This document shows, in pieces, positions 22,984-25,327 of a DNA stretch of 42,235 nt. Both the position numbers and the translations under genes were made by a program. This DNA is from a virus. The DNA is taken from the UHGV virus genome UHGV-1993760; one strand, 5' to 3'. Position 1 is the first letter of the stretch; each line of letters opens with the position of its first letter. A model generated the notes under the pieces. The model saw only the letters and a list, made by a program, of their open reading frames with translations, was not told the DNA's origin and did not search any database.

Positions 22984-23166
22984 TCAGTTCTGCAGACACT
23001 GCCGAACACCGTCGACAATTTCACAGACCTGAGAAGCAGTATCGAAAAGCTGGCGCGCTTTATCCAGGCTGACGCATCCCACCAGGAAAAAAGGCACCAG
23101 TATCACTACCAGCGCCCATTTCGCCGCCGCTAGCGGCATTCTGTGTGTCCAGTGCTTTCGGCTCAT
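22984..23166 (-). CDS. small lipoprotein (signal peptide plus lipobox LVGC)
   Basis: ATG at 23166; MSRKHWTHRMPLAAAKWALVVILVPFFLVGC... is a lipoprotein signal; about 60 aa; not proline-rich like Rz1 and not Bor-like. Confidence 0.45.
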   Translation of the reverse strand: MSRKHWTHRMPLAAAKWALVVILVPFFLVGCVSLDKARQLFDTASQVCEIVDGVRQCLQN

Positions 23167-23223
23167 AATTTTGCAATTCACTTGATACAATCCCCGCTGA
23201 ACTAAACGCAAAAAGGAGTGTTC

Positions 23224-23493
23224 ATGACTAAAGAGCAACTGGAAGTAATTGTCGCCTTAATCAGCAGCCAGCAAATGGCTCTGACTCACCTCTCACTAAA
23301 AGTCGCAAGCCTCACCGGCTGCGACAAGCAGGAGCTAGCCAATTCATTCCTTCAGGAGGGTGAACGCCTGCTAACCAGACACAATGGCAAGCTCGCCAAT
23401 GTTATTTTCAGCCAGATTGCCAGGGGTATTGAGGCAGGCGAGGAACAATCACAAGAGAACATCAGAGGAGAGATTAACGGACTACTTCATTAA
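23224..23493 (+). CDS. hypothetical protein encoded opposite to the late operon
   Basis: ATG at 23224 preceded by AAAAGGAG; 89 aa; no recognisable family. Confidence 0.45.
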   Translation: MTKEQLEVIVALISSQQMALTHLSLKVASLTGCDKQELANSFLQEGERLLTRHNGKLANVIFSQIARGIEAGEEQSQENIRGEINGLLH

Positions 23494-23625
23494 ATATTGC
23501 CATAATCTCTGACTGAATTTGCTCAAAAAATGACAATTCGGTTTTTGTGCCAGCCGCTGCATTTGCCGATGCTGCGGCTTTTTGTTTATTTTTTTTCAAA
23601 ACATTCTCCTGCAGAATAAAAGCTG

Positions 23626-24003
23626 TCATCGTTTCAACTGAAAGTGAGGCCCGTCTTTCAGTGTTTTCCAGTCCCCGCCCCATTCGATGGCAGTTCCCAG
23701 CTCTGCGGCAGCCTGCTTAAATGCCTGTGCGATTTTCTCGTACAGAGGCCAGTCCCATGACACCTGGCTACCAACATAAGCCACAACATCCACCGCATCA
23801 CCGGTCAGGTGACGGCTGTTCATGGTCTGGCTTTTCCCTTCCGCAACCAGCTGTTTCTGGCGATACTTACTGCGCAGACCTTCCGTAATACCGAAATCAA
23901 CCTCCGTCAGCTCCAGCGCACGGCGAACAACAGCAACCAGCTGTGGTTTGACGCCCTCCAGATTTTTTTCACTGCGACGACTGAATCTGAATTTACCCGA
24001 CAT
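23626..24003 (-). CDS. endolysin, peptidase M15-type (VanY-like zinc peptidase)
   Basis: ...SRHLTGDAVDV... and ...WGGDW...DGPHFQL... are typical M15 zinc-ligand motifs; likely ATG at 24003 with GGAG upstream (track start is GTG at 24009). Confidence 0.65.
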   Translation of the reverse strand: MSGKFRFSRRSEKNLEGVKPQLVAVVRRALELTEVDFGITEGLRSKYRQKQLVAEGKSQTMNSRHLTGDAVDVVAYVGSQVSWDWPLYEKIAQAFKQAAAELGTAIEWGGDWKTLKDGPHFQLKR

Positions 24004-24005
24004 GC

Positions 24006-24281
24006 TCACCTCCGGAATGAAAGGATTTTTGAAACGTTCCCGCGTGCACGTATCACCAGCACACAGAACAGCAGATTAAGCCCCACCGCCAGCCAGTTCG
24101 CCGCTAACGGGCGACCGCACAGATAGCTGAGTGGTGCAAAGGCATAAAGCAGCATCAGTAGCCAGGCCAGCCATGACATCAGCGGTTTATGTCTGGAATC
24201 ACGGCGACGATAAAAAAAGAGCGTCAGCACGATAACCGTGCATAATGCTACATTCAGCAATCCGGGAAGGTTACTTAACAT
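24006..24281 (-). CDS. lysis-associated membrane protein (possible second holin or antiholin)
   Basis: About 91 aa from ATG 24281 with hydrophobic segments; lies between the holin and the endolysin. Confidence 0.4.
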   Translation of the reverse strand: MLSNLPGLLNVALCTVIVLTLFFYRRRDSRHKPLMSWLAWLLMLLYAFAPLSYLCGRPLAANWLAVGLNLLFCVLVIRARGNVSKILSFRR

Positions 24282-24663
24282 TGCCGCCTCCTCCACCCCG
24301 CAGGCGGGAGAACACACTGGACACCAGTGATGCAATATCCTGCTGGTGGATGAACGACAGAATCTTCACCGACACCACCGATACCAGCACCGCACACAGC
24401 GCATCTGCCGATGTACCGTCATACCCTGTTTTTGATGCAATCCAGGCTGACAGCACGCGCGCCCCCAGCACGCCGACGATAAACGACACCAGAAAATGCG
24501 CCACCACGCGCCAGACTGAAAGCGCCTGCGGCATCGTTGCCACAAACAACGCCCCGGCGAACGCACCAAACACAATCCCGAAATCCGTTCCGGTAAACAG
24601 CCCGTACACCGTCGCCCCGCCGAGCGCCGCAGCCGTGCCGGAACCGGATAAGGGTTCAGACAT
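24271..24663 (-). CDS. putative holin
   Basis: ATG at 24663 with GGAG 8 nt upstream; about 130 aa with several hydrophobic helices and a charged C-terminus; first gene of the lysis cassette. Confidence 0.5.
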   Translation of the reverse strand: MSEPLSGSGTAAALGGATVYGLFTGTDFGIVFGAFAGALFVATMPQALSVWRVVAHFLVSFIVGVLGARVLSAWIASKTGYDGTSADALCAVLVSVVSVKILSFIHQQDIASLVSSVFSRLRGGGGGNVK

Positions 24664-24901
24664 ACGTTTTTCTCCTGTAAATAAAAAAAGGCCACCAGCG
24701 GCCCGTAAAAAACACCCCGTCAAAGGCACCCGCAGATGCCTTTTGTGTGGTGTTATTCAGATTTGCGCAGTAAAGGCCAGAGTACGGCCAGCACAGCCGC
24801 CACCAGCACACCATCTGCCAGCACCGACATCAGCCGTCCGGTGAAATCCACCGCCACTACCAGAAACAGCAGGATGGCAGCCAGCACAAGGCGCGCACTT
24901 T

Positions 24902-25327
24902 TCACAGGTACTGCTCCAGCGGTAGCTGAAGCGCCTGCGCAATTTTCTTGAGCTGTGCTTCTTCATCCGGACCAATGCCATCCTGGTCAGCGATATCCAG
25001 ACACAGGCACAGTACATTAACTGCATCATCAGTACCGGCAACATCAGCCAGCTGACGAAGGGCTTCAGCATTGGCAGAGCGCGGCGACGCTTCATAACGG
25101 GCGCGGATATTTGCACTCATTTGTGCAATCTCGCCGGAGAACGGCGCAAAGGCAGGAAGTGCTGCAATGGTTTTCTCCAGTACTGCGATTTCTTTCGCGT
25201 CGCAGGTGCCGTCAGCGTATGCAATGGAATACGCACCCCAGACGGTCGCCTCCACTGCGTCGCGGTTCTCCATCTTCTTCACTTCGGTAATGGCCTTGCG
25301 GGTTTTCTTTTTGAAAATACCAAACAT
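24902..25327 (-). CDS. hypothetical helical protein (first ORF after the terminators; possibly TerB-like)
   Basis: 141 aa with AAGGAAA upstream; function not recognised. Confidence 0.45.
   Translation of the reverse strand: MFGIFKKKTRKAITEVKKMENRDAVEATVWGAYSIAYADGTCDAKEIAVLEKTIAALPAFAPFSGEIAQMSANIRARYEASPRSANAEALRQLADVAGTDDAVNVLCLCLDIADQDGIGPDEEAQLKKIAQALQLPLEQYL

Follow-up and report, generated by a model that had tools for sequence, protein, structure and literature searches.

The lysis region of the Shiga toxin 2e (Stx2e) phage phiP27 has been approached from two sides. Kongari et al. (2018) entered phiP27 in SpaninDB among the two-component spanins of the ‘separated’ class, giving it an i-spanin of 64 residues (20348-20542) and an o-spanin of 51 residues (20706-20861), and noted it as having the shortest periplasmic span in their data set, 62 residues including the i-spanin (PMC6139136). 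In porcine STEC (Escherichia coli that produces Shiga toxin), deletion of the 130-residue homologue of the first holin of such a cassette abolished fluoroquinolone-induced Stx2e release (PMC12571312), which indicates that phiP27-type cassettes drive release. Here we consider the corresponding cassette of the virus genome UHGV-1993760 (42,235 nucleotides, the whole of which is called the window below), which is read on the minus strand, and in particular its last gene, encoding a 60-residue prolipoprotein of the family phrog_7528. We put at roughly one half the probability that this lipoprotein alone performs the outer-membrane step of lysis, with no inner-membrane partner. To our knowledge, the means by which spanin-less phages breach the outer membrane is largely an open question, and only the disruptin of phage phiKT has been characterised; the lipoprotein family is a second candidate for a spanin-independent outer-membrane step, and one that occurs in the best model host.

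Neither the cassette nor the lipoprotein is itself a novelty. Cassettes of the phiP27 type are known from hundreds of E. coli prophages, and SpaninDB already contains the lipoprotein, where it is the phiP27 o-spanin and forms a singleton family. New here are the recognition of the lipoprotein as a conserved family across Enterobacterales that stands alone behind the endolysin, the finding that the phiP27 i-spanin of SpaninDB is an antisense artefact, and the explanation of the ‘detachment’ of the lipoprotein in the window as a moron insertion.

A phiP27-type cassette with a conserved terminal lipoprotein

There is little doubt that the region is a phiP27-type late lysis cassette carrying an insertion, with the lipoprotein as its conserved terminal gene. 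The minus-strand order runs from a TerB/TciA gene and a DUF3927/TciB gene through two holin-family genes, an M15 endolysin and a small open reading frame (ORF) to the 60-residue lipoprotein, and the same gene calls are found in the RefSeq annotation of related E. coli prophages. By megablast, 55 complete E. coli genomes cover at least 80% of window positions 22700-25400 at 93-99% identity, and phage phiP27 matches the cassette at 91% identity. The ORFs of the first-pass annotation of this DNA (holin-like, second membrane protein, endolysin, lipoprotein, a plus-strand gene and an ORF with a GTG start) were all recovered where it had placed them, and its proposal of a holin, second membrane protein and M15 endolysin cassette is borne out by matches in Pfam, phrog and PDB that chance could not plausibly produce.

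The terminal gene (22984..23166, minus strand; phrog_7528, E = 7.5e-36) encodes a prolipoprotein with the lipobox LVGC ending at Cys31. The cysteine is followed by Val, and since none of the family members inspected has Asp at position +2, sorting to the outer membrane is predicted. The mature 30 residues, predicted to be helical and amphipathic, have an unbroken stripe of hydrophobic residues in a heptad-like spacing, carry a net charge of -1 and include two further invariant cysteines, Cys48 and Cys57; helix is predicted for 25 of the 30 in SpaninDB, and AlphaFold returns a single long helix of modest confidence (predicted local distance difference test score, pLDDT, 69), which adds little. 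Scans with the lipoprotein gave no Pfam match even at E <= 10, no NCBIfam match at a likewise lenient threshold and nothing informative in PADLOC. The n-region of the signal peptide is also conserved across genera, following the pattern M-x-R-x-H-W-T-H-R-x-P-R (within residues 1-17), which signal peptides seldom show and which suggests that the region, as peptide or as mRNA, may have its own function.

Such conservation extends well beyond the window. Among 5426 complete E. coli genomes, 208 (about 4%) carry the lipoprotein, at 294 places, and a profile and word search assembled 204 clusters, nearly all listed members of which are 44-89 residues long with the three cysteines invariant. Besides Escherichia, the genera represented are Enterobacter, Citrobacter, Salmonella, Yersinia, Cronobacter, Mangrovibacter, Lelliottia and Leclercia. 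When 1.84 billion representative proteins were searched by profile, only 22 matches resulted, short (44-79 residues) save for a few long or fused exceptions of 85-892 residues, and the three cysteines are retained even in homologues of 40-60% identity (Enterobacter, Yersinia, Mangrovibacter and others). Across 85 copies the ratio of nonsynonymous to synonymous polymorphism (pN/pS) is 0.18 overall and 0.13 in the mature part: the gene is under purifying selection. One further record, PP818812.1 (‘Actinobacillus phage vB_Apl-pPE4’), is about 93% identical to the window region including the lipoprotein, and its host assignment looks doubtful.

These observations bear directly on the notion that the lipoprotein is a relic, a functionless o-spanin remnant that persisted after loss of its i-spanin in prophages defective in spanin function. 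The mature domain is indeed very short, some copies are frameshifted, and many of the host prophages may be defective. Strong purifying selection (pN/pS 0.13-0.18) is nonetheless hard to reconcile with a relic, as is the maintenance of a length of about 60 residues and of three cysteines across at least eight genera. Beyond the exceptions just mentioned, no longer relatives were found among the 1.84 billion representative proteins. Moreover, phiP27 is a complete sequenced Stx2e phage genome, and the phage is released on induction. We therefore regard a relic as very improbable.

The genomic setting of the lipoprotein was surveyed in 80 IMG/VR loci retrieved with the lipoprotein as query, and in more divergent homologues. 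The holin families PF16931 and PF05449 form a pair upstream in all 77 of the loci with enough upstream sequence. In 41 of the 80 loci the lipoprotein gene directly follows the endolysin, with a spacer of exactly 14 nucleotides in 40 of these; in 26, a GH108-type endolysin replaces the M15 enzyme and a small membrane protein, called ‘tm57’ here, is encoded just 5' of the lipoprotein; and in nine, M15 is combined with tm57, with or without a 93-residue ORF. Among the divergent homologues the lipoprotein gene always lies directly 3' of the endolysin, at a distance of 0-14 nucleotides or with an ATGA overlap. Its company nevertheless changes: in Yersinia it follows PF16931, PF05449 and a GH108/PG_binding_3 endolysin; in Enterobacter, Mangrovibacter and a lambdoid contig encoding Q it follows a lambda-S-like PF05106 holin and an M15 endolysin; and in Mu-like prophages (GemA, Mor, Portal_Mu) it follows PF16931, PF05449 and either M15 or GH108. 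At least four backbones carry it (P27-like, Mu-like, lambdoid-Q and ParB/TAGT). Because the same position is held with three holin/endolysin combinations and on differing backbones, the gene is modular: neither the type of holin or endolysin nor the virion module determines its presence, and its place is always that of a spanin. The ORFs downstream of the lipoprotein in the divergent homologues have no transmembrane segments.

Modularity of this kind also weighs on a regulatory role, in which the lipoprotein, as a factor of the periplasm or outer membrane, would time holin triggering or restrain the endolysin while shear or osmotic forces ruptured the outer membrane. Lysis cassettes do hold additional regulators (Lcc6 of LambdaSo and the Mu releasin are examples), and spanin mutants still lyse under shear. 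Yet three unrelated holin/endolysin combinations argue against a specific partner, the holins here lack a sizeable periplasmic domain to which the lipoprotein could bind, and, as described below, normal spanins replace the lipoprotein in the same slot. A lysis regulator thus appears distinctly improbable.

The search for a spanin partner

The lipoprotein has the features expected of an o-spanin, namely a lipobox, no Asp at +2 and a location in the lysis cassette; what is missing is an accompanying i-spanin and a length sufficient to bridge the periplasm. An ordinary two-component spanin would nevertheless be the conventional explanation: the lipoprotein would be an o-spanin that, with either the i-spanin of SpaninDB or an unrecognised inner-membrane protein of phage or host, bridges and fuses the two membranes. 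phiP27 was so listed by Kongari et al. 2018 (PMC6139136), the lipoprotein occupies the o-spanin place, and periplasmic cysteines are typical of spanins.

The listed i-spanin, however, does not survive comparison of alleles. It corresponds to antisense frame 1 of a 90-residue gene. Only the phiP27 allele keeps this frame open, for 67 codons; that of the window is closed by a stop once 44 codons have passed, which is 6 residues beyond the hydrophobic stretch. Because it is antisense to a real gene, broken in the window and absent from 77 of the 80 loci, the SpaninDB i-spanin is spurious. Nor did other candidates come forward. Neither the window nor the complete phiP27 genome (42.6 kb) yielded a credible i-spanin, meaning an N-terminal transmembrane segment followed by a periplasmic domain, when scanned in six frames; the handful of ORFs picked out proved to be signal peptides or off-frame overlaps. 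No second credible lysis-region lipoprotein emerged from a lipobox scan across all six frames of the window or from the scans of phiP27, and five types of i-spanin gave no tblastn match in any of the 85 loci with an intact lipoprotein. The first-pass annotation had seen no embedded Rz/Rz1 pair, and there is none in the window cassette; the search of all frames for spanin genes that it had proposed turned up no canonical spanin elsewhere in the window.

Two more general considerations point the same way. No phage membrane protein consistently co-occurs with the lipoprotein across the three unrelated holin/endolysin sets, and a mature domain of 30 residues, at most about 4.5 nm long as a helix, cannot bridge the periplasm or, by itself, bring about fusion of the inner with the outer membrane. 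Since nothing anchors it to the inner membrane, the lipoprotein cannot be a spanin in the defined sense, and we consider a two-component spanin an unlikely explanation.

The small protein tm57 deserves mention in its own right. It has 50-57 residues, a basic N-terminus and a transmembrane segment at the extreme C-terminus, and in about 35 of the 80 loci its gene shows translational coupling to that of the lipoprotein (examples lie at 2326-2499 of locus L004 and 3826-3999 of locus L026). In the Shiga toxin (Stx) phage GER2 it is coupled to Rz instead (2130-2282 of locus L005). We considered tm57 as an unconventional i-spanin and rejected it: the basic N-terminus implies an N-in topology that leaves no periplasmic domain, the protein is absent from the window and from the 41 loci of direct layout, and in GER2 it precedes a normal Rz. 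Possibly tm57 assists the outer-membrane step as a conserved accessory, or else it marks a joint of recombination.

Relatives that do carry spanins are informative about the slot itself. Holin-pair relatives at 33-44% identity have ordinary spanins right after the endolysin: Klebsiella phage Seifer has an annotated o-spanin and a transmembrane protein there, mEp390 an overlapping spanin pair, and Salmonella F1055 an embedded Rz/Rz1. Closer still, E. coli NY1601 has the same holin-holin-M15 cassette, followed 15 nucleotides after the endolysin by Rz with an embedded Rz1; beyond these lie an opposite-strand Ais-like phosphatase, a 5'-truncated copy of the lipoprotein and a pseudogene of orf98, the acidic ORF that flanks the lipoprotein in the window. 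The same downstream layout recurs in GER2, whose cassette is of the S-R-Rz/Rz1 type and whose lipoprotein copy is riddled with stops. This pattern, which involves only two Rz-bearing loci, is consistent with the lipoprotein and Rz/Rz1 being functionally interchangeable. The phosphatase gene in these two loci is a moron annotated as ‘LPS core heptose(II)-phosphate phosphatase’, LPS being lipopolysaccharide (NY1601, 1840-2457 of locus L093, minus strand; GER2, 2823-3437 of locus L005, minus strand). A further phage, Rac-SA53, looked like a spanin-less relative and was set aside, since it derives from a deletion that joined the M15 N-terminus to terS. The fused ORF (4641-5258 of locus L087) follows LT-IIa toxin genes, and the deletion removed the rest of a second lysis cassette.

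A lipopeptide proposed to act alone at the outer membrane

How might so small a protein complete lysis? The prolipoprotein would be lipidated at Cys31 and sorted by the Lol pathway, as its Val at +2 would permit, to the inner leaflet of the outer membrane. There the 29-residue amphipathic helix with its two invariant cysteines would probably form disulfide-linked oligomers, and the lipoprotein would accumulate harmlessly during late gene expression. Once the holin had fired and the endolysin had removed the murein, it would destabilise the outer membrane, either directly or in a manner resembling colicin release, that is, by membrane perturbation with activation of the phospholipase OmpLA. Lysis would then be completed without an inner-membrane partner and without membrane fusion. 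The localisation, oligomerisation and outer-membrane-disrupting activity in this scheme are what we infer for the protein. More tentatively than the stand-alone role itself, phrog_7528 might be placed beside spanins and disruptin as a third class of proteins with which phages disrupt the outer membrane: a stand-alone, disulfide-bonded lipopeptide of about 30 residues, anchored in that membrane, interchangeable with Rz/Rz1 and usable with unrelated holin/endolysin pairs in P27-like, Mu-like and lambdoid phages of Enterobacterales.

Several points weigh against the lipoprotein acting alone in lysis. What ties it to lysis is the arrangement of genes. The mature protein is not cationic (net charge -1), unlike the phiKT disruptin, and when the profile of the mature lipoprotein was compared by hhalign with o-spanins (those of GER2, Seifer, mEp390, F1055 and lambda), colicin lysis proteins, entericidins and Lpp, no probability exceeded 2%; an earlier idea that the lipoprotein mimics Lpp was dropped as unsupported by the same comparison. 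Decay of the gene in the company of Rz/Rz1 is seen at two loci only, NY1601 and GER2, and the neighbouring orf98 is damaged in both, so local decay unrelated to redundancy is possible there. In the window, the insertion removed the good Shine-Dalgarno sequence of the direct layout, and the level of lipoprotein expression is uncertain. Small phage lipoproteins, moreover, often have roles outside lysis, as Llp, Cor and Bor illustrate. A minority of database copies (P0105-P0114) are frameshifted at a run of six or seven T; the T-run lies in the signal-peptide coding region (window 23092-23117), where slippage, phase variation or sequencing error could each be responsible.

Such roles outside lysis lead to the alternative that the lipoprotein is a non-lysis accessory, or moron, that masks a receptor or excludes superinfecting phage like T5 Llp or the Cor proteins of phi80 and N15, or serves as a Bor-like fitness factor. 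Small outer-membrane lipoproteins of coliphages often have exclusion or fitness roles, and lambda bor adjoins Rz/Rz1. The junction between lysis and terminase genes is furthermore a hot spot for such cargo (TerB/TciB, an 89-residue plus-strand gene and a K88-type fimbrial gene, with the Ais-like phosphatase, LT-II and stx2e in relatives), and the lipoprotein is dispensable in GER2 and NY1601. Against this stand the translational, or nearly translational, coupling of the lipoprotein to the endolysin, which in most layouts leaves no room for a promoter of its own, and its constant travelling with lysis cassettes across differing head and tail modules (P27 myovirus, Mu-like, lambdoid, and the lambda-like head of the window). 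Because the lipoprotein spans such differing modules, exclusion tied to one receptor fits poorly, and in the loci examined the gene was never beside tail-fibre genes: its linkage is to the endolysin rather than to a receptor-binding or tail module. The first-pass annotation had allowed that the lipoprotein might prove unrelated to lysis; its tight linkage to lysis cassettes speaks otherwise. A moron therefore seems to us unlikely, and were it correct, the finding would reduce to an ordinary known cassette with an insertion.

The insertion between endolysin and lipoprotein

The first-pass annotation described the lipoprotein as detached behind a gene on the opposite strand. The distance is real, the lipoprotein starting exactly 459 nucleotides beyond the endolysin stop, and it reflects a secondary insertion where the usual spacer is 14 nucleotides. 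In E. coli CFIAFB20180511 the lipoprotein gene starts 14 nucleotides past the endolysin stop, preceded by AGGTGG, and DNA alignment of this strain with phiP27 and P13-6 delimits a 459-bp insertion in the window at 23167..23625. An extra 460-490 bp or so is present at this junction in the window, P13-6 and phiP27, and an insert of the window type is found in only three of the 80 IMG/VR loci, the segment being absent from the other 77. Within near-identical flanks, it occurs as two deeply diverged alleles, one shared by the window and P13-6 and the other in phiP27. The separation is thus secondary, and the direct 14-nucleotide layout is ancestral and the most common. Late read-through transcription should still express the lipoprotein from behind the insert.

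The plus-strand gene in the insert (23224..23493; phrog_36812, E = 8e-61) encodes 89 residues and was credited in the first-pass annotation with a strong ribosome-binding site, which we see as AAGGAG 7 nucleotides 5' of the ATG. Compared with the phiP27 allele, the encoded protein is 46% identical with no stops and a BLOSUM score of 197, and the differences at codon positions 1/2/3 number 37/26/55; all other frames of the region, including every antisense frame, contain stops in this comparison. Given this coding signature between two alleles, and the stops in the other frames, the gene is genuine. An AlphaFold2 model has four helices (pLDDT 82), and a Foldseek search with it against the PDB gave no match at E <= 0.001; nor did the protein match PADLOC, Pfam or NCBIfam, the sole hit being a sub-threshold one to DUF5667 (E = 0.15). 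Upstream of the gene, the sequence TGATACAAT (23183..23191, plus strand) reads as an extended -10-like element. It is possible that TGATACAAT is the gene's own promoter, independent of the late operon; a strict sigma-70 scan found no promoters. The gene is probably a moron expressed independently of the late operon. Folding of the RNA at the convergent 3' ends was not significant (z = -1.45).

The insert also contains a small co-directional ORF of 51 residues (23474..23629, minus strand), whose ATG overlaps the endolysin stop (ATGA). An open counterpart of about 49% identity exists in phiP27, with a GTGA overlap, and a similar ORF lies downstream of the lipoprotein in another locus, L017. Its codon-position differences (23/13/22) are ambiguous, it has no transmembrane segment, and Pfam, NCBIfam, phrog and PADLOC scans gave no family match.

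In the phiP27 record, NC_003356, L32 (20630-20785) is called in a frame overlapping the lipoprotein, and the record misses both the lipoprotein itself (20679-20861) and the opposite-strand 90-residue gene (20335-20604), which together occupy 20335-20861 (locus L091).

Holins, endolysin and neighbouring genes

Upstream of the insert the cassette is of the canonical type that pairs a holin with a soluble endolysin. The first holin-family protein (24271..24663, minus strand; 130 residues) matches PF16931 (Phage_holin_8) at E = 2.4e-22, with 79.8 bits against a Pfam cut-off of 26.4, as well as the phrog_198 holin family; it has three to four hydrophobic segments and its gene is preceded by AGGAGA. 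The second (24006..24281, minus strand; 91 residues) matches PF05449 (Phage_holin_3_7) at E = 1.8e-21, with 76.4 bits against a cut-off of 25.4, and the phrog_217 holin family at E = 3e-37; it has three hydrophobic segments and may act as a holin or as an antiholin, and its gene overlaps that of the first by 11 nucleotides. Both are thus small multi-transmembrane proteins that score above the Pfam gathering threshold and are encoded upstream of the endolysin.

The endolysin (23626..24003, minus strand; 125 residues) matches PF13539 (Peptidase_M15_4) at E = 1.5e-12, with 48.4 bits against a cut-off of 25, and phrog_465 at E = 4.6e-75. The zinc-ligand motifs (H-x6-D ... H) are found in SRHLTGDAVD and GPHFQ, and searches of the PDB retrieved L-Ala-D-Glu endopeptidases, among them 23ri, 8q2g and ChiX (5opz) at E values of about 1e-43 and the T5 enzyme (2mxz) at 2e-23. 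The protein lacks a signal sequence, a signal-arrest-release segment and a hydrophobic N-terminus. By these sequence features it is a soluble, cytoplasmic M15 L-alanyl-D-glutamate endopeptidase and, having no signal, would require a holin hole to reach the cell wall.

Upstream of the holins, the first-pass annotation had noted a hydrophobic ORF with a GTG start. The ORF exists, and is not a lysis gene: it encodes a DUF3927/TciB-like membrane protein of 50 residues (24753..24905, minus strand; PF13064, E = 1.1e-15; phrog_1470 ‘TciB-like’, E = 9e-25) with two hydrophobic segments, and is annotated as a DUF3927 family protein in RefSeq relatives. Its GTG overlaps the stop of a TerB/TciA-like gene (24902..25327, minus strand; 141 residues; PF05099, E = 1.2e-7; phrog_632 ‘tellurite resistance’, E = 4e-65) that has about 80% DNA identity to tciA of P1. 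A TerB-domain protein followed by a small DUF3927 membrane protein is the arrangement of the P1 tciA/tciB module, and it is because of this resemblance that the ORF is assigned to a moron lying outside the lysis machinery. A GC hairpin with a T-run (24689..24704, minus strand; consensus scan) separates the module from the first holin and is a putative terminator.

The TerB/DUF3927 module sits just downstream of a transfer RNA (tRNA) cluster, the slot that stx2e occupies in phiP27. Upstream of it the window has four tRNA genes (Gly-TCC, Thr-TGT, Lys-TTT and Met-CAT; 25795-26104, minus strand), and the equivalent place in phiP27, upstream of stx2e, has Ile and Arg tRNAs.

On the other side of the cassette, orf98 (22513..22809, minus strand; phrog_1935, E = 1.2e-60) encodes an acidic protein of 98 residues with no transmembrane segment and comes after the lipoprotein in roughly half the relatives; it drew no informative match from Pfam, NCBIfam or PADLOC. 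Between the lysis region and the small terminase subunit lies an orphan gene for a K88/F4-type fimbrial subunit (21298-22068, minus strand; PF02432, E = 2e-58), which has no usher or chaperone nearby and similar DNA in only eight of the 5426 complete E. coli genomes (chromosomes and plasmids). Taken whole, the window represents a mosaic myovirus prophage that combines a tail sheath with lambda-like terminase, portal, S49 protease and major head protein, and its integrase-side genes are common to phiP27. Near the integrase, a 62-residue membrane protein and a 275-residue lipoprotein (MKKIIFALAIVLPTIGLVGC...) are encoded at 38773-39785 (plus strand); this pair has its counterpart in phiP27 L05 and no connection with the lysis cassette.

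Comparison with known systems

Two existing records are corrected by this analysis, the phiP27 i-spanin in SpaninDB and the GenBank annotation of phiP27, which had missed the lipoprotein and the opposite-strand gene. Carriers of the lipoprotein include Stx2e and Stx2k phages. If a lipopeptide does destabilise the outer membrane by itself, it would offer a very small, modular tool for lysis or permeabilisation, and it could affect the release of Shiga toxin 2e from porcine STEC.

Of the two-component systems, lambda Rz/Rz1 resembles the window cassette in having a lipobox lipoprotein with periplasmic cysteines, encoded last in the cassette. The mature parts differ: that of lambda Rz1 has 40 residues, 10 of them proline, whereas that of the window lipoprotein has 30, is helical and contains no prolines. 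The u-spanin of T1, gp11, likewise fills the spanin slot by itself and has a lipoprotein signal at its N-terminus, but it carries a C-terminal transmembrane segment, which the window lipoprotein and all its homologues lack, and the lipoprotein is about half the length of a u-spanin.

Type 10 secretion provides a comparison on the endolysin side. The window enzyme is about as similar to Serratia ChiX of the ChiWXYZ system (5opz, E = 6e-43) as to phage enzymes, and a homologous holin is linked to Stx2e release. Unlike ChiWXYZ, the window cassette belongs to a full prophage late operon beside terminase genes, and nothing suggests a dedicated secretion role.

Perhaps the nearest parallels in size are the colicin lysis proteins (ColE1 Kil and the bacteriocin release protein, BRP, of cloacin DF13), which are prolipoproteins of about 45-60 residues with a lipobox and a mature part of about 28-30 residues. 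These proteins act at the release step, where the window lipoprotein would, by analogy, have its proposed role. The BRP signal peptide is functional and stable, and the conserved n-region of the lipoprotein recalls it. Beyond this the likeness is limited: against BRP sequences hhalign gave a probability below 1%, there is no match to the Pfam family Lysis_col, and the window lipoprotein is helical and has cysteines, unlike the colicin lysis proteins. Disruptin (phiKT gp28) shares with it the proposal that one small protein replaces the spanins (bioRxiv 10.1101/515445). Disruptin, however, is cationic, resembles an antimicrobial peptide and has no lipoprotein signal, whereas the window protein is predicted to be lipidated and has a mature charge of -1.

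The most complete likeness is to phiP27 itself (NC_003356, L28-L33), whose genes agree with those of the window in kind and order, with a DNA identity of 89-94%: two holins, M15, the small ORF overlapping its stop, the opposite-strand gene of about 90 residues (as a different allele, at 46% amino-acid identity), the lipoprotein and orf98. The two phages diverge around this shared set. Where the window has TerB/TciB, phiP27 has stx2e, and where the window continues into the K88-type fimbrial gene and lambda-like packaging genes, phiP27 continues into HNH, cos and a P27-type terminase.

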